The notes below the pieces were generated by a model, which was not told the origin of the DNA, ran no database searches, and worked only from the letters and a program-made list of their open reading frames with translations. From a virus (Duplodnaviria; Heunggongvirae; Uroviricota; Caudoviricetes), in the IMG/VR virus record IMGVR_UViG_2778261676_000001: a stretch of DNA of 10,282 nucleotides. One strand, 5' to 3'. This document shows, one piece after another, positions 1 through 10,282 of this stretch. The translations under genes and the position numbers were made by a program. Every line of letters begins with the position of its first letter. The stretch's first letter is position 1.

Positions 1-1175
1 ATATAGTTAAATGCGATGTTTTTGACGGTGTTTTCCGCGTTACCAGCAGCGTTAACGGTGATGGTGTGTCCATGTGAACCAATCGCAACGGAGTGCGTAT
101 GAGCACCAATACCGACAGTATGCGCGTGTGCACCTGCGCTTGCAGCAGTGCCGGACAGTGAGTGGGTATGTGCGCCAGCAGATGATGTTGCATAGTTTTG
201 ATTATGCACAACAGACAATCTTGTTGATGCACTACCAGCACCGGAGTTAGCACTAGCCGTGTTCACGTTGGCTAGTGAGTGTGTGTGTGCTCCAGCCGAG
301 TTTGTAGAGCCGCTCACACTGTGTGTATGTGCCCCGGTGTTATTCGTGGATTTAGTGCCGTAATCAAACGACGATGTGGTTTTCGTCCCCAAATCTGTAC
401 TGGATGCGCTGGCGCTGTGGGTATGCGATTTAATGCCGTCCTGTTCCTGAGACAATACGGCCCGACCACTGGCAGGTTTGCCCTTAATCGTCCAGCCACG
501 CATATCAGGGATCACGCCTGACGGATAAGCGGCTGCAAGTTTCGGGTAAGCAGATTTGTCAAAAGCCTGCCCCTGCATCAGGGCATAACCAGACGGAACG
601 GTATCTGATGGCCACGGGATTGGTGCGCCGACTGGGTAGCTTTCTGGTGGAAGATTTTTCGAGGTATAAACTTCTGCCCAGTCTTCCTCAAAACCATAAC
701 CGTCTCTTGAAGAACGGTAGAACAGACCACCATTTCTGTAATGCGCCTTCATCTGCAGGGTCCGGCAACTTCCGACTCCGGTATAGAAGTTAACCAGAAT
801 ATAGCTGTCGCCAGAGCGGGTGACATTGTAAGCGCCTGATTCGGCATTCCATGGAACGCCACCATCCGCATCGGCATATGTATCCGTTGCCCTTCTGGCA
901 AAAGCAGCCACATGCGCGGCGGTTAAAGTAATATCTTTGGAACCATCAAACTCAACACCAGAAACCAGTCTTGGCGTTTGCAGCTTTGTTGCTGTTAATG
1001 CATTACCGTTCAGACTTGCGGACAGTTTGGTTCCAATAACCAGTTCGCCGGTTGCGTTATCAATAGCAAACGGTCTTAATGTATTCCAGCCACCATAAAC
1101 ATCACCTTGATTGGTAAGCAGCAGGTAAGTTTTAGCGCCATCATTACGCCATAATGCACCATACTCCCCACCTAT
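1..1175 (-). pseudogene. stf: Side tail fiber protein (Stf / T4 gp37-like) C-terminal portion; 5-prime-truncated remnant, partial at window edge
   Basis: Minus-strand frame is open from 1175 through position 1 with no stop. Hand translation reads [212 protein letters not shown]... then tandem GAHTHS-type His-x-His repeats ...[19 protein letters not shown], which I recognise as the conserved C-terminal region of lambdoid side tail fibers. The frame is closed upstream by TGA at 1176-1178 and has no in-frame ATG near its 5-prime end, so the N-terminal majority of a normal Stf is absent. It is missing from the ORF track because it has no start and runs off the window. Confidence 0.7.
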
Positions 1176-2388
1176 TCATTCGAATCTGATTACCACCACG
1201 CGCTACAATTTCGTCTGTGGCAAAAAGTTTTTTGCACGACAAGTTATCGTTAACGATTAACGAATGAGACTCATAAAAACCACGCCCACTCTTAAAATCA
1301 AGGATAACGTCCGCCGCGATACATTCAGTCGCCGGATTTGTTGCCCCAAACTTATAGGTCGTATCATTAACAACGAGATCAGCACCAGGTGCGGATATTG
1401 ACAGGCCATCTTCAATAAACGCAAAAACAGGGAAAGCAGCGCCATCAACATAGAACACAGAGCGCAAATCATCGCCCTTATTACTCATCATTATTGAGTG
1501 AATGGCTCGTTCATTGTTTTGATATTGCCAGAACATGCCATAAGCATAACGCCCCCTGTCAGTCCAGCCACCAGGCATAACAAATCCGTTAAACTCGCAG
1601 TTATTCATCGGATCGCCTGCGGTTCGCGTTGCTGTGGTGATAATGACTCTTGATGCCAGTTCGCTTACGTAGGTTCCGGAATCCAGATACAGCTCGGTCA
1701 TTCCGCCGCTGTTTTTCTGCGTCTGTTTCTGCCCTAACTGGACAGCACCGATCGTCATAAACAATTCACCACAGCGACCGAGATTCGTGTACGTATTCAC
1801 ATCCTCGTTAATGCGCCCCATGAATGAGAACGGTCGATCAACCGAACAGATAAAGCTGTTCATTGCCTTGCGTTTCACCCACGAAGCATGGCCGCCATTG
1901 TCACCAAGAAAATCCCCTCCCTGCGACATAGCGATGGAAAGAGCAGGTATTGATTCGTAGTACGCCAGCATTTCAGAAAGGATCGCATCCAGTTTCCTTA
2001 TCGGAAAATAGGCCTGGTCATAGTTGCGATCCACCCGAAACTGGAACTCGTGATAATCATCATCGAGCTGAATGAAGTATTTACACCCGACCAGTTTTGC
2101 CTGGTCGAAACAGGCATTACGGGCGTAAAAAATTGAGCGGCGGTCACAGAAATTATCGGCTTCGTCAAAACGACTGGCGATATCGGCTTTGGAAAACACC
2201 AGCACCTGTTCACCAAATTCAGCCATGTACTGATGCCGTGTCTTATCTTCATCATCAACAACGATAAAAATTTTCCCGGTATAGCCAGCACGACGCAACG
2301 TCCGGTAAGTCAGAACTTTGTCCGGTCGCCCGTGAGTCAGAATAAAGGCGCAAAAATCATCACGCATATTCCTCCTCCTCACCACCAT
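1144..2388 (-). CDS. Uncharacterised protein with N-terminal GT-A fold (family-2-like) glycosyltransferase motifs and ~270-aa C-terminal region of unknown function
   Basis: 414-aa ORF from ATG 2388; alternative ATG at 2367 (407 aa) overlaps the upstream gene stop as ATGCGTGA and is preceded by GAGGAGGAGG. Motif series [11 protein letters not shown] / [11 protein letters not shown] / [27 protein letters not shown] matches the beta1, beta2 and ARN..G.Y..LD.DD (DxD) signature of GT-A glycosyltransferases. No Walker A and no methyltransferase motifs. Stop at 1144-1146 lies 30 nt inside the point where the stf frame opens. Confidence 0.85.
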
Positions 2389-3151
2389 GCATGATCTCCA
2401 CCATGCGCTGCGTCATCCGGACAAATCCATTTTCAATAGCCTGCTGATAATCAATGATCACCAGCGCCGACTCCTCGAAAAAACACTGAATTTCAGCGGG
2501 GGCGTGAGCGTAATAGTCCGCAATTCTGCTGAAATTAAACACCGTGTGACGTTCTGCCGCACACAGGAGGAATTTCTCAATATCAGGCTCAAGGGACGCC
2601 GAACGTATCCGGCTGATCAGCTCCTGAGTTTTCGTATCGTCGTACAGTTCACTGATATCCGGTTTACCGCCCGACGGCTCATAAACAGGCGTATCAATTT
2701 TCGTCGTATACGGCTCCTCCTCATTTCCTGTACCGGGCAAAACATCCGTCAACAGTTCATCAATTTCTGTCGGGATGAAGCCTGTCAGGGAGACATCAAA
2801 ATCAGCATTGATTAGGTCCGACAGCTCCATCCGCAACAGATCTTCATCCCAGCCAGCATTCATCGGCAGGCGATTATCTGCCAGGCGGTACGCCTTTTTC
2901 TGCTCATCCGTCAGGCCAGACAGAACAATGACCGGAACAGAATCCATTTTGAGCATTTCAGCCGCCATAACACGACCGTGACCCGCAATAATTTCGCCCT
3001 TTTCGTCAATCAGCACCGGATTAGTCCAGCCGAATTGCTTAATACTTTCTACCAGTTGTGCCACCTGCTCAGTACTGTGCGTCCTGGCGTTGTGCGCATA
3101 CGGTGACAATTCTTGTAATGGGCGATAGACTATCTTTAATTTCTCGCTCAT
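2360..3151 (-). CDS. ParB/Srx-fold (ParB-like nuclease domain) protein with acidic C-terminal tail
   Basis: 263-aa ORF, ATG at 3149-3151 preceded by AAGG. N-terminal region IVYRPLQELSPYAHNARTHSTEQVAQLVESIKQFGWTNPVLIDEKGEIIAGHGRVMAAEMLKMDSVPVIVL has the ParB N-domain pattern including the GxxR arginine motif. C-terminus is acidic (GGEEEEYA). Translationally coupled to the downstream glycosyltransferase-like gene. Confidence 0.85.
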   Translation of the reverse strand: MSEKLKIVYRPLQELSPYAHNARTHSTEQVAQLVESIKQFGWTNPVLIDEKGEIIAGHGRVMAAEMLKMDSVPVIVLSGLTDEQKKAYRLADNRLPMNAGWDEDLLRMELSDLINADFDVSLTGFIPTEIDELLTDVLPGTGNEEEPYTTKIDTPVYEPSGGKPDISELYDDTKTQELISRIRSASLEPDIEKFLLCAAERHTVFNFSRIADYYAHAPAEIQCFFEESALVIIDYQQAIENGFVRMTQRMVEIMHGGEEEEYA

Positions 3152-3167
3152 ACAGCCTTGCTTTATG

Positions 3168-3202
3168 AATAAAACGCACCCCAGCAGCCAGTGCTACTGG
3201 GG
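3168..3202 (-). terminator. Possible weak terminator/attenuator between trkG and the ParB-like gene
   Basis: Imperfect 9-bp stem CCCCAGCAG / CTACTGGGG (one mismatch) with a 6-nt loop, followed on the minus strand by GCGTTTTATT, ending about 20 nt before the ParB-like start codon. Confidence 0.25.
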
Positions 3203-3288
3203 ACGGAGGTGTTGCTGGTAAAGTTAGGTATTGGATCAATGAGTGAGTCAACATAATATTAAACTCACAATTATAAATCAGCCATATA

Positions 3289-4764
3289 TTAGGAGCGCCA
3301 AAAAAAACCTGAAAACAATATAATAACAGGATAAATTTCAAGGCGACCAAGAATCATAGCTATGCACATTAAACATTTTGCAATGTCATTAAGCACTCCG
3401 AATGACGATGCAGTAGCCCCAAAACCTAATCCCATATTATTAATACATGCAGCCACTGTTGCAAATGATGTAAGAAAATCATATCCCATACCATTTAACA
3501 CCAGTATAAAAAACACCGTGAAGAGAGTATAAAGAAAAAAGAAACTCCATACAGACCTCATTACACGATCTGTAACTATCTTCCCTCCTACATTTACACT
3601 CAACAACGCTCTGGGATGAGAAAGCTGATTTATCTCGTGTTTGCTTTGTTTGAAAAGTATAAGAAATCGAAGTGACTTAATTCCACCACAAGTTGAACCT
3701 ATACATCCCCCAAAGAAACTTGACAACAGCAAAAACACTATCGTGTGCGTGGGCCAACTTGCATAATCCTGCGTAGCTAAACCATTATCAGTGAGCATGG
3801 AGCTGGCAAGAAAAAACGAATGAATAAAACTTCCATGCAAGTCATACATACCTATATGCCAGACCTGGAAAGAGGTAACAATGATCACCCCTAAGGCTAT
3901 TAACAGAAAGAAACGAAGTTCAATATCTCTGATTAAAGGTTTTATCGTTTTCCTGCTAATAACAATATACCAAAGAGTGAAGTTGAAAGCCGATAGCAGG
4001 GAAAAAGAACCAGCCACCAGCTCAACCAAATAGTTATTAAAATATCCGATACTCTCGCTATGAGTTGAGAAACCACCAAGCGAAACTGTGGAAATCCCGT
4101 GACAAATAGCATCAAACAAAGGCATTCCTGCAAGTCTATAACAGACAATACAAGCAATACCTAATAAAGAATAAGTTATCCACAGTGTCCGTGACGTATC
4201 GGCCAGGCGGGGAGTGAGTTTGTCATCCTTAAATGGCCCCGGCATTTCTGACTGATAAAGCTTTGCACCACCAATACCCAATAATGGCAATACAGCAACC
4301 GCCAGAACAATAACTCCTAAACCACCTATAAAATTTAACTGTGACCGATAGTACAAATATGCCCGAGGTAATGAACTAACATCATCAATTACAGTTGCTC
4401 CTGTTGTTGTTATTCCAGAAACCCCTTCAAACAGAGCATCAATGAACGTTAAATTAAGTTCTGAGTCAATCCATAAAGGGAATGCACTAATAACAGAAAA
4501 CAAAATCCAAAACATTACAATTATAATAAACCCATCACGGGTACGTAATTGAATGCCAGATTTCTTAGTTGTATACCACGCTCCGCCACCAATGCAAAAA
4601 AATATAACGAAAGTTATAAAGAAAACAAACAGGCTTTTTTCTTTATAAAACAATGCTACAACCATTGGTGGCAACATTGAAAGACTATAGAGCCAAACCA
4701 GGAACCCACACATATGAGTAACAACTCTTACATGAGATGTATTCATATCTAAATATTCTTTCAA
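3289..4764 (-). CDS. trkG: TrkH-family potassium uptake protein, prophage-borne (TrkG-like)
   Basis: 491-aa polytopic membrane ORF with TrkH/KtrB-type pore-loop motifs (FEGVSGITTTGATV, ICHGISTVSLGGFSTHSESIGYF, GGCIGSTCGGIK). Markedly AT-rich relative to flanking phage genes, and sits directly after Rz as in Rac-type prophages. ORF-track start is a TTG at 4764 with AAGGTGG 6 nt upstream; an in-frame ATG at 4746 (MNTSHVRVV..., 485 aa) is the alternative start. Confidence 0.85.
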   Translation of the reverse strand: MKEYLDMNTSHVRVVTHMCGFLVWLYSLSMLPPMVVALFYKEKSLFVFFITFVIFFCIGGGAWYTTKKSGIQLRTRDGFIIIVMFWILFSVISAFPLWIDSELNLTFIDALFEGVSGITTTGATVIDDVSSLPRAYLYYRSQLNFIGGLGVIVLAVAVLPLLGIGGAKLYQSEMPGPFKDDKLTPRLADTSRTLWITYSLLGIACIVCYRLAGMPLFDAICHGISTVSLGGFSTHSESIGYFNNYLVELVAGSFSLLSAFNFTLWYIVISRKTIKPLIRDIELRFFLLIALGVIIVTSFQVWHIGMYDLHGSFIHSFFLASSMLTDNGLATQDYASWPTHTIVFLLLSSFFGGCIGSTCGGIKSLRFLILFKQSKHEINQLSHPRALLSVNVGGKIVTDRVMRSVWSFFFLYTLFTVFFILVLNGMGYDFLTSFATVAACINNMGLGFGATASSFGVLNDIAKCLMCIAMILGRLEIYPVIILFSGFFWRS

Positions 4765-4883
4765 TTATAACCACCTTGCTGCAATATTATGATTATACTG
4801 TATAAAATTTAACTCCTCTTAGATCTTACTTCACTGTTCCTTATGAAACAATCATCAAAATGAATCATATTGTAGTTAAGATT

Positions 4884-5348
4884 TTACTTTAAACACTGCT
4901 CGGTTATGTATTGCTGAGCACCTTCAAGTTGGGCCTGCATCATTACCAGTCGTTCCCGGAGGGTGAAATAATCCCGTTCAGCGGTGTCTGCCAGTCGGGA
5001 GGAGGCTGCATTATCCACGCCGGAGGCGGTGGTGGCTTCACGCACTGACTGACAGACTGCTTTGATGTGCAACCGACGACGACCAGCGGCAACATCATCA
5101 CGCAGAGCATCATTTTCAGCTTTCGCATCAGCTAACTCCTTCGTGTATTTTGCATCGAGCGCAGCAACATCACGCTGACGCATCTGCATGTCAGTAATTG
5201 CCGCGTTCGCCAGCTTCAGTTCTCTGGCATTTTTGTCGCGCTGGGCTTTGTAGGTAATGGCGTTATCACGGTAATGATTAACAGCCCATGACAGGCAGAC
5301 GATGATGCAGATAACCAGAGCGGAGATAATCGCGGTTACTCTGTTCAT
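4884..5348 (-). CDS. rzpD: Rz i-spanin (inner-membrane spanin subunit)
   Basis: Sequence [60 protein letters not shown]... is almost identical to lambda/DLP12 Rz as I recall it. The ATG at 5346-5348 overlaps the endolysin stop (ATGA). The ORF-track start at 5360 is an upstream GTG and is probably not used. Symbol given by similarity; the prophage of origin is not certain. Confidence 0.9.
4943..5128 (-). CDS. rzoD: Rz1 o-spanin lipoprotein, embedded in the +1 frame of Rz
   Basis: 61-aa ORF wholly inside Rz in a different frame. [23 protein letters not shown] has a lipobox (VVGC), followed by a proline-rich mature region [18 protein letters not shown], typical of Rz1. Confidence 0.85.
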
Positions 5349-5842
5349 TGCTGACCCCACAAACAGATTTCACGCTCAATCTCACGACGAGTCATGAGAC
5401 CTTTCCATTGCTTACCGCCAGCATATGTCCAGCGACGTAGCTGATCACATGCGCCTTTGATATCGCCCTGGTTTATTTTGCGAAGAAGCGTCGATGTTCT
5501 GAAATTGCCAGCACCCACGTTGTAAACGAATGAGTAAAGAGCGCCGCGCGTTGTTTCCGGTATATCGACTTTGATGTACGGGTTAATTTGTCTGGCGACC
5601 GTGGCAAGGTCTTTATTCAAGAGTGTTTTGCATTCTGCTTTGGTATACGTTTTACCGAGCATGATGTCTTTTCCTGTATGCCCGTGACATACAGTCCATA
5701 CACCAACAATATCTTTGTATGGTATGTAGCTGACACCTTCCAGACCATCGTTACCACTTGGGCCAGTGATTAACACTGATGCTATAGCAATTGCTCCGCC
5801 ACCAATAGCAGCAGCAACGACTTTTCGTAATGATGGAGGCAT
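5345..5842 (-). CDS. rrrD: SAR endolysin (phage-21 R-type lysozyme, GH24 family)
   Basis: 165 aa. N-terminal Gly/Ala-rich signal-anchor-release segment ([20 protein letters not shown]) followed by a lysozyme catalytic region ([25 protein letters not shown]). Start ATG overlaps the holin stop (TAATG). Closely resembles DLP12 RrrD / phage 21 R as I recall them. Confidence 0.9.
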
Positions 5843-6057
5843 TATTCACCTCTCGCAGCCTTGCGCTTATCTTCTTTAATCTTGAAATAAAGGTTTGTCA
5901 GGTACGTCAGCAGGCCAAATACCAGACTACCCAGCACACCGATTGCAGCCCACTGTGACGGAGTTACTCTATCGAGCAACTGTAAAAACCAGTAGCCAGC
6001 ACTGCCTGCGGAGGTGCCGTAGGCAATGCCTGTTGAAATTTTGTCCATGGATTTCAT
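5842..6057 (-). CDS. essD: Class II pinholin (S21-like) with dual-start motif
   Basis: 71-aa product [71 protein letters not shown] with two TM segments and the M-K-x-M dual start. GGAGGTGA Shine-Dalgarno sits 6 nt upstream of ATG 6055-6057. The ORF-track start at 6114 is an upstream GTG extension. Confidence 0.9.
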
Positions 6058-6156
6058 AGCCTCACCTCCGCACGGAACGGATGGCATAGTTATTATGTGT
6101 AGGCTTTCAGACACATCAATCAGAGCCTTAATTGATATATATGCTGGAGACGATGC

Positions 6157-6183
6157 AATATAAAAAGCTCGCCGTAGCGAGCT
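6157..6183 (-). terminator. Intrinsic terminator between the lipoprotein morons and the lysis cassette
   Basis: Perfect 7-bp GC-rich stem AGCTCGC / GCGAGCT with a 4-nt loop (6166-6183), followed on the minus strand by TTTTATATT. No U-tract on the plus strand, so it is unidirectional. Confidence 0.6.
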
Positions 6184-6308: not shown

Positions 6309-6704
6309 CTAACCTCGCATGTCAAAGCCAGATTTCTGAAAATCTCTGTAGACTTCCGGATTGTTGAAGGCCGGAAATTTGGCTTTATGAGCTGCGGACT
6401 TTATCGCTTCGCAATAGGCTTTATCACCGTTACTGGTAGATATTTTTAACGCCGTGCCATCCTGAGAGAATTCCATATGCAACCTGCATTTTTTCCCTTT
6501 CCAGTTATGCGGCTCATCAAGTTTGGCATTAATTGCAGCTCTGATTCCCCGCGCTTGCGCCCCCCATTCATCCTGATCATCCCAGCGTCCTGAACTGCAA
6601 CTACCTGTAGCAGTAGTTTTGTGGCAATCTGAAGGGTGTAAAGGTGTGCATCCCGCAACAAAACCGACCCAAAAAGTCAACATAACGATTTTCTTTAATC
6701 CCAC
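6309..6704 (-). CDS. Lipoprotein with TolA C-terminal (domain III)-like mature domain
   Basis: 131 aa. GTG start at 6704 with GAGGAG 6 nt upstream. Signal peptide with lipobox (FVAGC). C-terminal part WKGKKCRLHMEFSQDGTALKISTSNGDKAYCEAIKSAAHKAKFPAFNNPEVYRDFQKSGFD follows the TolA domain III pattern (GK.C.L...G.L..I....D..C.A...A...AK.P..P..VY..F). Paralog of the next gene. Confidence 0.8.
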   Translation of the reverse strand: MGLKKIVMLTFWVGFVAGCTPLHPSDCHKTTATGSCSSGRWDDQDEWGAQARGIRAAINAKLDEPHNWKGKKCRLHMEFSQDGTALKISTSNGDKAYCEAIKSAAHKAKFPAFNNPEVYRDFQKSGFDMRG

Positions 6705-6854
6705 TTCTTGCTCCTCAATCCATTAAAATCTCAGCAATAGTAGTTGTTACGTCCGCCACTGGCTCAGAGCTGACTATCCGCTAAATTTAGCTCAGTGCCG
6801 TAGCTGTGTCAGAACAAACCTAAGCCGAAACCGTTTATTACAAAACAATAAATA

Positions 6855-7283
6855 TCAGGGTTTACAATCCAGCACCCCATTTTGAAATACTTTATATACT
6901 TCCGGCGAAGGGGGGGCAGGTATATCAGCATTCTTTATCGCATTCATCGCTTCACGACATAAATCGAGGTCTCCACTTTCTCTTTTAACCTCCAGTAGAA
7001 GGCCATTCGGAGCCATATGCATTCTCAGTGTACACTCTTTTCCTGAATACTTACTCGCATCCCCGAACTGTTTTTCGATGGCGCTCTTGATTTGATGGGC
7101 ATACAGACGGATATCCTCACTAACATCAGAAGTACGTTCAGATGAACTCACATACTGTGTCTCTATTGCTTTATCGGAGTAATATGATGTACGGTCATGA
7201 TAATTTGTCGATACAGCATCAGTGCACCCGATAATAATCCCACTAATAATCAACGTAAGAATTGATGCGCTACGAAAACCCAT
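6855..7283 (-). CDS. Lipoprotein with TolA C-terminal (domain III)-like mature domain
   Basis: 142 aa. ATG at 7283 with GAGGA upstream. Lipobox IIGC. C-terminal 85 aa YAHQIKSAIEKQFGDASKYSGKECTLRMHMAPNGLLLEVKRESGDLDLCREAMNAIKNADIPAPPSPEVYKVFQNGVLDCKP align closely with the E. coli TolA C-terminus as I recall it (YAGQIKSAIESKFYDASSYAGKTCTLRIKLAPDGMLLDIKPEGGDPALCQAALAAAKLAKIPKPPSQAVYEVFKNAPLDFKP). Confidence 0.85.
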   Translation of the reverse strand: MGFRSASILTLIISGIIIGCTDAVSTNYHDRTSYYSDKAIETQYVSSSERTSDVSEDIRLYAHQIKSAIEKQFGDASKYSGKECTLRMHMAPNGLLLEVKRESGDLDLCREAMNAIKNADIPAPPSPEVYKVFQNGVLDCKP

Positions 7284-7873
7284 TTTTCCTCACATATGTC
7301 ATATAGTAAAGGATTATATATACCGTTGTTTTGGACGCTCAAACAGCGAATCAGATCAAATAAAACGCACATTTGTTAACATTTACACAAAGTCTGCGTG
7401 GGATATTCTGAAAGAATATCCATAATGTGGAGAGAATCTATTGAAGTGCATGGTGCCGGGTGCCTCCCGGTGAACAAAATGTTCGTGATACCTGTCGGCG
7501 ACAGAAAAGGTTAATGGTATCACCCCACCGCACAGGGGGATTCACCATGCAGGAGTTTTCTTAGCAAACTCACTGCGCGCCCGGCAACTCCCAACCACAT
7601 AAAATGCGGAGTTTGTGGTATTTATGCATATAACTCGCAGGAATTATCTTAAAAAACTGATGTCGATCCGGATTAAAAAGAAGCAGGTCATCATCAGATG
7701 ACTGGAAAAAAGGAAAACAAAAAATACTCATCATACAGTTTTGATTGCAGGGATGAGCCTGCTATGCACAATATGCAGAATATAAGCAAGATAAAAATAT
7801 GCAGGCATATTATTTCGGATTTTGTTATTAACACAACCTTTTTAATAATCATTTGGCATACAATAAACCAGCC

Positions 7874-7900
7874 CAAAAAGAACCGCCTAAACAGGCGGTT
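7874..7900 (-). terminator. Intrinsic terminator in the Q-to-lysis intergenic region (candidate tR-prime-like)
   Basis: 8-bp stem AACCGCCT / AGGCGGTT with a 4-nt loop (7881-7900), followed on the minus strand by CTTTTT. No U-tract on the plus strand. Confidence 0.6.
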
Positions 7901-8144
7901 GGTCAATACAAAGGATGCTTCGTCTTTATTATAGTAATCTGAGGCGTCGGGTGTCTTGTATCAGACAACATATTGTCCCGCTAAACAGCGAATTACAAAC
8001 CACCCTGCAATGATCTCTCATCTCATTTTATATGAGTTGACGACATCAGGATAACGCATCATCAGCCCCTGCCAAGAAATATCAAAACTCCCGCCAGCAA
8101 TGTGTTATCACAATATTGTAAAAAAAACACAGCACCGAAACTAT

Positions 8145-8220: not shown

Positions 8221-8247
8221 AAAAAAACCGCATTAAGCGGTTTTTTT
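8221..8247. terminator. Bidirectional intrinsic terminator just downstream of the Q-like gene
   Basis: AAAAAAACCGC-ATTAA-GCGGTTTTTTT: a GC stem flanked symmetrically by A7 and T7 tracts, so a hairpin plus U-tract forms on either strand. Confidence 0.65.
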
Positions 8248-8327: not shown

Positions 8328-8870
8328 TCAAGCCATTTTCTCAGCAAATGATTCACGCATGGGAATATATAGGGCATACTCAGCAACAGCTAACCAATTA
8401 GCAATCCGTTTTTCGCATGTGCTAAAACACCACTCTGGGTGTGCATCATTTAGCAATTCAGCCATTTTGCGCTTAGTCATCCCTCGCCCTTCATAGCGTT
8501 GCCGGAGAATGCAAATCAATCCTGGATGCTCTGCCAGCACCTCACTTATGACTCGATCAATACATAACGCCTCTGCATCAGTACAATGCGCCAGCCAGCT
8601 CTTTTGCTTGCCGTTGATCATCTCTCGCAAAAACGCTTCCAGCTCAGCTTTCTCTATTCCCGCTTTTTTCATTCTGCGCAGGGCTTCATTAATGGCTGTT
8701 TTCGTCAGTTTTTTGGATGCCAACAACTGATTGAACATATTCCCTGACCTGCCACCGCCAATATACGACCAGCGCCCCCACATACGTAGTTTTCCCTGAA
8801 TCCAGACACTTTCCAGCGTGGTGAGGCGAAGGTGTTCTCCGCTTTTTCCTGTATTCGTTGGGTAAATCAT
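8328..8870 (-). CDS. Putative late-gene regulator (antiterminator Q-like) with C-terminal sigma-70 region-4-like HTH
   Basis: 180-aa ORF immediately downstream of, and translationally coupled to, the YbcO-like nin gene (ATGA overlap at 8867-8870). This is the position Q occupies in lambdoid phages, upstream of the lysis cassette. C-terminal LRQRYEGRGMTKRKMAELLNDAHPEWCFSTCEKRIANWLAVAE resembles an HTH of the sigma region 4 / LuxR type. Family assignment is by position and motif only. Confidence 0.5.
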   Translation of the reverse strand: MIYPTNTGKSGEHLRLTTLESVWIQGKLRMWGRWSYIGGGRSGNMFNQLLASKKLTKTAINEALRRMKKAGIEKAELEAFLREMINGKQKSWLAHCTDAEALCIDRVISEVLAEHPGLICILRQRYEGRGMTKRKMAELLNDAHPEWCFSTCEKRIANWLAVAEYALYIPMRESFAEKMA

Positions 8871-9157
8871 AAATGACCTTTCTTTCTCCAGATTTCTTGT
8901 GTGCGAAAAACCCCTTCAGCATGCATCAGGCGCAATTCTTCTTTGGTGTAATCGCTGGTTTTTACCCGCCCGTCGATTAGATCGTGGCATGAGCTACAGG
9001 CTATCGCCGCCTGCATATCGTGTGGTTTTGTCGCTGTTCCGCACGTCCCCGCCAGCCTGTAATGCGCCAGCACAGAGGTTTCGGGATTGTGATTGCAGTA
9101 GCCAGGGATTCTGATCTGGCACATCTGGCCTTTAGCCGCTTTACGTAAATTCACCAT
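8867..9157 (-). CDS. ybcO: YbcO-like nin-region protein (DUF1364, Cys-rich putative nuclease)
   Basis: 96 aa: MVNLRKAAKGQMCQIRIPGYCNHNPETSVLAHYRLAGTCGTATKPHDMQAAIACSSCHDLIDGR... matches the conserved pattern of DLP12 YbcO as I recall it (LRKAA.G..CQ.RIPG.CN.NPETSVLAH.RL.G.CGT.TKP.D..A.IACS.CHD.ID.R). Start ATG overlaps the upstream gene stop (TAATG). Confidence 0.8.
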   Translation of the reverse strand: MVNLRKAAKGQMCQIRIPGYCNHNPETSVLAHYRLAGTCGTATKPHDMQAAIACSSCHDLIDGRVKTSDYTKEELRLMHAEGVFRTQEIWRKKGHL

Positions 9158-9756
9158 TACGCAAACTCCAGTAGTTGTGCGGCCACATTTTCAACTTCCT
9201 CCTGAGAGGAGAATTTACGGAACAGAATCCAGTTCCACAGCACATTCAGTACAGATTTATAAACCTGCTGAAACTCGACTTCGTCCATATTCGCAAAAGC
9301 GATGGATTTTGCCCGACGCCCACGGCTACCGTCCGGATAAATATGCTCGGTGTAAAATCCGGCCTGAATGGTTACCCACTCGCGGAAAGCCTCAAACGAC
9401 TTTAGCAACGCCGTATCCCGGGTTCTACGAGTCGCAACGGTGTTAAGGTATTGCTCTGCGGCATCACTCAGGGCTGGCGTGTGTTCCCGACCAACTGATT
9501 CGCACAGGTAATCAACGAAACCAGACAGCAGTTCTCGTTCGCGAGGCGTGATCGCCCCACCGACCGGAGTCCAGTAATCGAATCCCAGTTGCAGGAGTTT
9601 GAAAAAACGCTTGTGGAATGCGTAGTTACGCACACGCTTAAAGTCTGCGTGTATCCACTCACCTATTTTGATTTGATGCAGAAAATCGCAACTCTCCGGC
9701 GTCGCCGGGAGAAGTAAACCAGAAGAAGTTTGTTTGACCAGTTGTATATGCGCCAT
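9157..9756 (-). CDS. Conserved lambdoid nin-region protein (DUF1367-like, ~200 aa)
   Basis: 199-aa ORF, ATG at 9754-9756 with GAGAG upstream; coupled to the ybcO-like gene. Size and neighbourhood (directly upstream of DUF1364 and Q) match the DUF1367 family from memory; the family call is not verified by search. Confidence 0.6.
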   Translation of the reverse strand: MAHIQLVKQTSSGLLLPATPESCDFLHQIKIGEWIHADFKRVRNYAFHKRFFKLLQLGFDYWTPVGGAITPRERELLSGFVDYLCESVGREHTPALSDAAEQYLNTVATRRTRDTALLKSFEAFREWVTIQAGFYTEHIYPDGSRGRRAKSIAFANMDEVEFQQVYKSVLNVLWNWILFRKFSSQEEVENVAAQLLEFA

Positions 9757-10282
9757 TTCTCAATCTCTCGATGGCGCAGTGCAGCAGATGCCAGTTGTTC
9801 AGGCTGACGTATAAAGTATAAATAAACTGGTTCCAGTGTAAAGCCCCCACCTTAATGGAATAAAAACCAAACAACAGATTGCTGGGATACAAACAACGCT
9901 TATTATTAAAAGCGGTTAAACAAATTAAATTTTAATGTTATGCAAATTTGTCAGATCACCATAATATCTCATTTGAAAACCGCTGAAATAACAGCCCTAT
10001 CAGGGTTAATCATATTAAGGTGAGTAAATATGGAAAACAACAAATCTGTACATTACGTTCCTTTTTTATCTGTAATACTTTTTGTTTTATGCTGTGCGTG
10101 GGCATTATTTTTATAAAAATATTTACAGATGAAGTAAACCCGCCAATCAGGTTAACTGTGGCTGCGTTGAGGATGCATAATACATCAGAGGTTGCGGGGA
10201 TTTCTCCCATAAGCGCTAACTTAAGGGTTGTGGTATTACGCCTGATATGATTTAACGTGCCGATGAATTACTCTCACGATAA

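Follow-up and report, generated by a model that had tools for sequence, protein, structure and literature searches.

Single-domain TolA-III proteins with a predicted lipid anchor in a lambdoid prophage as candidate co-receptor decoys

Two short lipoproteins encoded in the late region of a lambdoid prophage each combine a predicted outer-membrane lipid anchor with a stand-alone copy of the C-terminal domain of the cell-envelope protein TolA (TolA-III), and may serve as decoys of this periplasmic co-receptor. Their genes, here called A and B, lie in the virus record IMGVR_UViG_2778261676_000001 (Caudoviricetes), a stretch of 10,282 nucleotides (nt) referred to below as the window:

6855..7283, minus strand, gene B, encoding a lipoprotein of 142 amino acids (aa)
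6309..6704, minus strand, gene A, encoding a lipoprotein of 131 aa

TolA-III is the force-transmitting end in the Tol–Pal system, and it is the handle that group A colicins and filamentous phages share for entry. The TolA-III domain family is known, and databases already label such genes by this domain; what appears from the sequences to be new is a natural, mobile single-domain derivative with a predicted lipid anchor.

Domain identity and fold

An earlier note on this DNA had described a TolA-III pattern in the C-terminal parts of both proteins, closest in the 142-aa protein, and profile, alignment and structure comparisons bear this out. B matches the Pfam family PF06519 (gathering cutoff of 25 bits) over residues 49–138 (E = 5.5e-23, 81.4 bits) and A matches it over residues 44–125 (E = 1.3e-14, 54.6 bits). 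Searches with phmmer against the TolA-III chains of the PDB gave E-values of 6.6e-27 for B and 5.2e-09 for A. In alignment with Escherichia coli TolA, B is 59.3% identical over 86 ungapped residues (TolA residues 336–421) and shares the C-terminal KP, and A is 33.8% identical over 77 residues.

The domain of B, as modelled by AlphaFold2, superimposes on TolA-III from its complex with the g3p protein of phage If1 (PDB entry 2x9a chain B) with a root mean square deviation of 0.7 Å and a template modelling score of 0.96, and it also matches PDB entries 1tol and 3qdp (E of approximately 5e-11). B is composed of a variable Ser/Thr/Tyr-rich linker extending to approximately residue 51 and a TolA-III domain comprising residues 52–142; in the model, the N-terminal residues 1–51 are disordered and the domain has a predicted local distance difference test score (pLDDT) of approximately 86–93. 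The model of A retains the order of helices and strands of TolA-III, and most of its domain (approximately residues 46–130) has a pLDDT above 90; the domain is preceded by a conserved Cys-loop segment (C27...C36, SSGRWDDQDEWG). Every sequence of the A and B families has both cysteines of the TolA disulfide pair (Cys363–Cys388).

Domain I of TolA, the inner-membrane anchor, and the helical domain II were sought as a test for full-length TolA and are absent from both proteins. The TolA equivalog models NF007065 and TIGR02794 are matched only at their C-terminal positions (approximately 265–387). With NF007065, the scores of B (102.8) and A (53.7) are both under the cutoff of 213; with TIGR02794, A scores 47.2, below the cutoff of 59.45, and B passes with 73.3 on the C-terminal stretch alone. 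Because the equivalogs match the C terminus only, and mostly below cutoff, A and B are single-domain derivatives and not TolA proteins. The TIGR02794 pass explains the name 'TolA' that RefSeq and the Prokaryotic Genome Annotation Pipeline (PGAP) give to B. In strain D9, B (9756–10184) is listed as 'cell envelope integrity protein TolA' (gene tolA), which is misleading for a protein that has domain III only.

Compared with E. coli TolA-III (approximately residues 334–421; PDB entries 1TOL, 2X9A, 3QDP/3QDR and 1S62), the fold and the disulfide are common to both proteins, and B shares the C-terminal end. The differences from TolA as a whole are larger: without domains I and II there would be no link to TolQR or to the proton motive force, the predicted lipid anchors A and B to the opposite (outer) membrane, and their genes lie in a prophage and not in the tol-pal operon. 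A, moreover, is only 34% identical to TolA and carries charge reversals at the colicin A site.

Signal peptides and predicted localization

The two lipoprotein reading frames claimed in the earlier note were recovered at their given positions on the minus strand, each with a lipoprotein signal peptide. A begins with MGLKKIVMLTFWVGFVAG/C (the slash stands before the lipid-bearing cysteine) and has the lipobox VAGC, a signal peptide of residues 1–18 and the lipid at Cys19; B begins with MGFRSASILTLIISGIIIG/C and has the lipobox IIGC, a signal peptide of residues 1–19 and the lipid at Cys20. The assignment is rule-based: both proteins have an n-region, an h-region, a lipobox of the form [LVI][ASTVI][GAS]C and a +2 residue other than Asp (KK...VAG/C-T in A and R...IIG/C-T in B). 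The lipobox and its cysteine are kept across both families. A starts at GTG, with the Shine–Dalgarno sequence GAGGAG 6 nt upstream and the same start position in its relatives, and B starts at ATG, with GAGGA upstream. RefSeq/PGAP calls A from Met8 (124 aa; strain D9 locus 9210–9584), and the charged n-region is thereby lost.

In E. coli, the residue that follows the lipid cysteine determines sorting by the Lol system (the +2 rule). Because this residue is Thr, and not Asp, in both proteins, A and B are predicted to be sorted to, and located at, the outer membrane.

Ligand-binding surfaces

The N1 domain of g3p binds helix α2 of TolA-III (residues 334–349) and adds a strand to β3 (residues 412–420); colicin N and the N terminus of TolB use the same β3 edge, where the backbone hydrogen bonds of D418 and K420 are decisive and side chains are of minor importance, and the affinity of g3p and of colicin N for the domain is approximately 1 µM (PMC4339652). 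Colicin A occupies the other edge of TolA-III (L375–P380), making cation–π contacts with K368, K379 and K396 (PMC3365938). The affinity of TolB for TolA-III is 40–200 µM (2020 Tol–Pal review).

In B, 11 of the 16 α2 positions are identical to those of TolA, and F412, L417, D418 and K420 of β3 are retained. At the colicin A site, half of the strand is retained (L375, L376 and K379), as is K396, and two positions are changed (K368H and P380R). Judged by these residues, B is a close mimic of the host receptor domain, in which the surface that binds g3p, colicin N and TolB is kept. The equivalent of F419 is Phe in 79 of 80 relatives of B; the copy in the window carries the substitution F140C (6864–6866; VLDCKP compared with VLDFKP), which puts an unpaired periplasmic cysteine into the ligand-binding β3 strand.

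The surface of A, by the same comparison, is different from that of TolA and internally conserved. No proline is found in the β3 strand of either protein, and augmentation there depends mainly on the backbone. The stretch of A from the lipid cysteine to the domain (residues 20–48; window 6590–6650) has the pattern C-x-PLHPS-x-C-HKTTA-x-GS-C-SSGRWDDQDEWG, which is nearly invariant across genera, contains two extra conserved cysteines and has no counterpart in TolA. The A segment GSCSSGRWDDQDEWG was considered as a TolB-binding epitope like that of colicin E9 and was rejected: the Trp spacing is off by one, and W47 aligns with TolA I337, in the first helix of the domain. The loose resemblance to the E9 epitope is probably coincidental.

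Proposed decoy mechanism

We tentatively propose that A and B act as co-receptor decoys, a reading that we find plausible without yet leaning towards it. Each protein would hang a stand-alone TolA-III domain, by its lipid and a linker of 25–35 residues, from the inner face of the outer membrane, out of reach of the TolQR motor to which domains I and II would be needed to connect. By β-strand augmentation, this domain would bind the kind of epitopes that the host TolA-III binds, namely the segments with which Tol-dependent bacteriocins bind TolA and, in filamentous phages, the N1 domain of g3p, as they emerge beneath the outer membrane. Docking on an anchor that transmits no force would be a dead end, in that import would stall and the carrier cell would be tolerant, a form of co-receptor-decoy exclusion or immunity. 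Because these parasites bind at approximately 1 µM and TolB at 40–200 µM, a moderate amount of decoy would titrate invaders more than it would disturb Tol–Pal. A, of a separate and highly conserved lineage, has an altered surface and an additional disulfide-loop segment, and may bind another ligand than B does.

The nearest functional parallels are Cor (phi80, N15 and HK022) and Llp (T5), which act from the periplasmic face and stop the entry of phages and colicins. A and B are likewise small, phage-encoded, predicted outer-membrane lipoproteins; whereas Cor and Llp obstruct FhuA, a receptor in the outer membrane, A and B would imitate a periplasmic co-receptor. No Cor or Llp family appeared among the matches of A and B in the Pfam and PHROGs scans, and the sole PHROGs match of both proteins is phrog_5772, a family without an assigned function. 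The lambdoid phages that carry these genes are not known to require TolA for themselves. Some background on Llp is given in bioRxiv 10.64898/2026.03.26.714494.

Two laboratory phenomena resemble the proposal in that they, too, perturb the equilibrium between TolA-III and its ligands in trans, with colicin tolerance and filamentous-phage resistance as the reported outcomes. Periplasmic TolAIII is reported to give a tol-like, leaky and colicin-tolerant phenotype (Levengood-Freyermuth and colleagues, 1993), and cells infected with Ff phages are reportedly immune by way of g3p (Boeke, Model and Zinder, 1982). Exported TolAIII is an overexpression artefact and g3p a block on the ligand side, whereas A and B would constitute a natural, lipid-anchored family of receptor-side decoys under selection.

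Distribution, lineages and selection

The earlier note took A and B for paralogues that arose by tandem duplication and specialised; this does not agree with the comparisons. The two proteins are 30.8% identical, belong to distinct lineages and each occur alone elsewhere as solitary A-type or B-type genes, and a local tandem duplication was rejected on these grounds; the pair looks like two independent acquisitions.

Of 5,426 complete E. coli genomes, 774 (approximately 14%) carry a 1.4-kb segment with both genes at an identity of 99% or more and almost over its full length, and 1,365 match some part of it. Among 80 prophage contigs of IMG/VR with the 99% allele of B, A and the same holin gene follow B in all 77 that are long enough; a DUF1133 gene is upstream of B in about half of the 80 and missing from the remainder, and at least two Q types occur. 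Because A and the holin follow B in all 77 while the upstream Q gene varies, B, A and the holin form a module that is shuffled among lambdoid backbones. As in a moron, the pair separates genes that adjoin each other in related phages and is exchanged among several unrelated lambdoid backbones: it is situated between Q-type genes and the holin both in Rac-like prophages and in phage mEp460_ev081.

The B-type family is small: its 46 clusters bear no organism names other than E. coli and Shigella, and its alleles fall at approximately 99%, 90%, 73% and 65% identity. In other prophages, the slot between Q and the holin is taken by the 90% and 65% alleles, with no A-type gene, and B-type alleles are found there in prophages with PF03589-type Q genes. 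The claim that this position is the one used by stx genes is upheld by the 65% allele, which in one prophage lies directly upstream of an array of genes for a nanS-p-type (DUF1737–SASA) esterase, DUF1378, DUF826 and a holin. This is the place of stxAB in phages encoding Shiga toxin (Stx phages). The pair thus resembles the accessory genes found between Q and the lysis genes of lambdoid phages (stxAB in Stx phages and nmpC in DLP12), as cargo between Q and the holin that is swapped among backbones. It follows the same cargo logic as bor, located elsewhere in lambda, with candidate signals of its own. A and B are different proteins from all of these, presumably with a different benefit.

The A-type family is far larger and also tighter, comprising 368 clusters that are 78–89% identical and come from at least eight genera (Citrobacter, Enterobacter, Serratia, Klebsiella, Raoultella and others). 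An A-type gene with 87–88% DNA identity is carried by approximately 600 E. coli and Shigella plasmids. In IncI1/B/O and IncK2/Z plasmids, it follows the relaxase gene nikB after 67 bp, co-oriented with nikA–nikB, convergent with trbABC and on the opposite side of oriT from ardA; in pO157-like plasmids, it is flanked by toxB on one side and hok/psiA/psiB on the other. A role as a leading-region (early-entry) gene was considered for both settings. It was dropped for the IncI plasmids on account of the location across oriT from ardA, and on pO157-like plasmids, where the gene is near hok/psiA/psiB, the plasmids are non-mobilizable. Two 8-kb contigs binned into metagenome-assembled genomes of Lachnospiraceae and Treponemataceae carry an A-type gene 88.5% identical to that of the window; this identity equals that of the IncI1 plasmid copy, and the contigs are probably mis-binned fragments of enterobacterial plasmids.

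Searched with a profile, a set of 1.8 billion representative proteins yielded 545 relatives; among the best 150 of these, 98 are at most 175 aa long, 56 of them with a clear lipobox. Because short, lipobox-bearing relatives are so numerous, a lipoprotein signal followed by TolA-III appears to be a broad and diverse architecture.

The ratio of non-synonymous to synonymous substitution rates (dN/dS) for A is 0.06–0.13 in comparisons with plasmid and other-genus copies, the Cys-loop segment included; for B it is 0.10–0.34 in the domain and 0.31–0.59 in the linker. As these ratios indicate purifying selection on both, neither gene is a decaying fragment. B is the more allelically diverse of the two, at 65–99% identity within one species, and on these comparisons is an E. 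coli-specific mimic of E. coli TolA-III.

Filamentous phages of the If1 type use the pili of IncI-complex plasmids as their receptor, and the g3p of If1 binds TolA-III (2x9a). Because IncI pili attract these phages, a protective role would fit with finding an A-type gene in the IncI relaxase operon. A broader form of the decoy proposal is possible, although on balance we doubt it: outer-membrane TolA-III lipoproteins would be widespread, unrecognised co-receptor decoys on prophages, conjugative plasmids and chromosomal islets of the Enterobacterales, making their carriers tolerant of Tol-dependent bacteriocins and excluding filamentous phages, with the IncI copies shielding pilus-bearing donors from If1-like phages and B engaged in an arms race while mimicking the host TolA.

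Genomic setting and regulatory signals

The genes lie in the late region of a lambdoid (Rac-like E. coli) prophage, in which the relevant genes are all on the minus strand. As the earlier note had it, A and B are both located in the slot between Q and the holin, here between a DUF1133 gene that is also a borderline Phage_antitermQ match and a holin gene of the phage 21 type. The features around them are, in the direction of transcription:

9157–9756, minus strand, DUF1367 gene
8867–9157, minus strand, YbcO-type nuclease gene
8328–8870, minus strand, Q-like late regulator gene, DUF1133 (PF06576, E = 2.5e-107; PF06530, Phage_antitermQ, borderline at 26.1 bits with a cutoff of 26)
7957..7928, minus strand, promoter-like site AAGACA-18-TATAAT, then a terminator hairpin at 7900..7881
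7394..7580, minus strand, full-length STnc100 prophage small RNA, between the Q-like gene and B (Rfam RF02076, 86.6 bits, gathering score 47)
7342..7313, minus strand, sigma-70-like promoter candidate TTGAGC-18-TATAAT, 10 of 12 consensus positions, approximately 30 nt upstream of B
6183..6166, minus strand, intrinsic-terminator-like hairpin with a T-run, between A and the holin gene (free energy of −13 kcal/mol, z = −2.7)
5842..6114, minus strand, phage-21-type holin gene (PF04971; 71-aa form of PGAP from approximately 6057), the first gene of the lysis cassette
5345–5842, minus strand, signal-anchor-release (SAR) endolysin/lysozyme gene (essentially identical in sequence to RrrD, PDB entry 4zpu, and to 3hde, a lysozyme chain from a phage; E of approximately 1e-110)
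4884–5360 and 4943–5128, minus strand, nested Rz/Rz1 genes

No relative with a solved structure was found for the Q-like protein. The gap of approximately 1 kb from its gene to B holds no convincing open reading frame (ORF), and a search for tRNA genes there found none. The promoter-like site and hairpin at 7957..7881 are a candidate late promoter with a short leader, similar to pR'/tR'. Approximately 85 nt past the Q-like gene, the hairpin AAAAAAACCGCTTAATGCGGTTTTTTT (8222–8245, minus strand, centred near 8233; −19.7 kcal/mol, z = −5.9) is flanked by A- and T-runs and was missed by the terminator scan; it could terminate transcription in both directions. The in silico scan found no terminator between B and A.

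STnc100 was the only match in an Rfam scan of the window. The similarity to phage mEp460_ev081 runs from the holin gene through A and B and ends inside STnc100, at approximately 7474, and the Q-annotated genes and the lysozyme of that phage differ from those of the window; STnc100 may be a recombination joint between lambdoid modules. Background on this RNA family is given in bioRxiv 10.64898/2026.05.13.724894.

The N-terminal segment of the lysozyme is Gly/Ala-rich, as is typical of SAR endolysins. Beyond Rz/Rz1 follow trkG and a ParB-like gene, and window positions 2898–5328 are 99.6% identical to the rzpR–trkG–ynaK stretch of the Rac prophage of E. coli K-12. The breakpoint is inside Rz, at window position 5328, and all that lies upstream of it, A and B included, is missing from K-12. 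Downstream of trkG, an ORF of 414 aa (1144–2388, minus strand) with a TET-associated glycosyltransferase domain (TAGT, PF20691) overlaps the end of an ORF with a ParB_N domain (2360–3151, minus strand); strain D9 annotates the corresponding region as two shorter hypothetical genes. These ORFs are a hint that the prophage may encode a DNA-modification activity.

Weighing the decoy proposal against alternatives

Several observations weigh against the decoy proposal, some of them concerning A. Only 4 of the 16 α2 positions and 2 of the 7 β3 positions of A are identical to those of TolA, and the ligand sites carry the substitutions K368E, D377K/N, K379S and K396H; because A has diverged at all three mapped ligand sites, it is a weaker candidate than B for a decoy of g3p or colicin A. 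Its near-invariance across genera (dN/dS of approximately 0.1), together with this divergence, would be better explained by a conserved host partner than by an arms race. In representative genomes (Leclercia and Kluyvera also among them), the A-type gene stands singly, in chromosomal surroundings that vary and contain no recognisable phage or plasmid genes. Of 50,697 genomes of isolated phages, that of mEp460_ev081 alone has the genes.

Expression is a further concern. Expression that is Q-dependent and late only would mean that protection of the lysogen is not the point, and the promoter candidate before B is a consensus match only; comparison adds no support, since the region upstream of the 65% allele is unrelated, that of the 90% allele is too similar, and the site is conserved only among near-identical alleles. 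A decoy that acts through β3 would also compete for the N terminus of TolB, which could be costly, and the position inside the late operon keeps a role in helping lysis or vesiculation alive despite the presence of Rz/Rz1. The PADLOC-DB 2.0 defence models gave no match to A or B at E-values up to 1, and no study on the function of the family turned up in full-text literature searches. The 2020 Tol–Pal review makes no mention of prophage homologues.

The alternative that retains most weight, although we judge it unlikely, is that the proteins are late saboteurs of Tol–Pal: transcribed from the Q-dependent late promoter, just ahead of the pinholin, SAR endolysin and spanin genes, a tethered TolA-III would capture the TolB N terminus, block the TolA-driven release of Pal and thereby weaken the outer membrane or boost vesiculation, aiding lysis or virion release. 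Such a role would suit the location of both genes inside the late operon, on the same strand as the Q-like and holin genes that flank them, the co-travel of B, A and the holin as one module in 77 of 77 sufficiently long viral contigs, and the use by TolB of the β3 site that B conserves. Periplasmic TolAIII is also reported to produce leaky, hypervesiculating cells (Henry, 2004; Levengood-Freyermuth, 1993). Modulation of TolB interactions could regulate vesicle production, as the 2020 Tol–Pal review notes. The same review gives an affinity of TolB for TolA-III that is low (40–200 µM), however, and a complete Rz/Rz1 spanin already serves to disrupt the outer membrane. The terminator between A and the holin and the promoter candidate before B make the unit moron-like, and sabotage of Tol–Pal leaves unexplained the A-type genes in plasmid relaxase operons and in lone, non-phage chromosomal settings.

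Only slightly less weight, again on the unlikely side, goes to the possibility that these are accessory envelope proteins, A in particular, in which a diverged TolA-III binds an endogenous ligand (the TolB N terminus, CpoB or another β-strand donor) and tunes the envelope, and which mobile elements acquired secondarily. The conservation of A over at least eight genera at 78–89% identity, the low dN/dS that extends to a Cys-loop absent from TolA, the departures of its surface from TolA at the sites bound by parasites and its chromosomal neighbourhoods without phage or plasmid genes or a fixed partner gene would all fit such a role. A is patchy rather than core, however, with a different locus in each genus, as is typical of accessory genes that move horizontally, and its only E. 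coli locations are prophages and plasmids. Gene context points to no candidate partner: in 28 genomes, no conserved partner gene was found beside the A-type gene.

That the pair consists of functionless hitch-hikers, 3' fragments of tolA captured and kept through vertical inheritance of a Rac-like prophage, would agree with its near-invariance in 774 genomes, as would fit a prophage that descends from a recent common ancestor, and with the plain PGAP name 'TolA' for B, yet it is very improbable given dN/dS well under 1 for both genes, the lipoprotein signal peptide and ribosome-binding site gained by each, the distinct alleles intact across prophage backbones, plasmids and other genera, and the confident folding of both models.

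Implications

A mobile copy of TolA-III with a predicted lipid anchor is carried by approximately 14% of complete E. coli genomes, by the IncI-complex plasmids examined, by pO157-like plasmids and by many other Enterobacterales; E. coli K-12, which lacks both A and B, offers a clean background. If the proteins are decoys, superinfection exclusion and tolerance of bacteriocins would follow a new logic here, in which a periplasmic co-receptor is imitated instead of a surface receptor being blocked or modified. Decoys of this kind would bear on antimicrobials based on colicins or phages, on the use of plasmid-dependent phages against resistance plasmids and on typing by colicin sensitivity, and would give Tol–Pal research natural competitive inhibitors with two different surfaces. 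If the proteins instead perturb Tol–Pal, they would provide phages with a means of weakening the outer membrane in a controlled way or of causing vesiculation.

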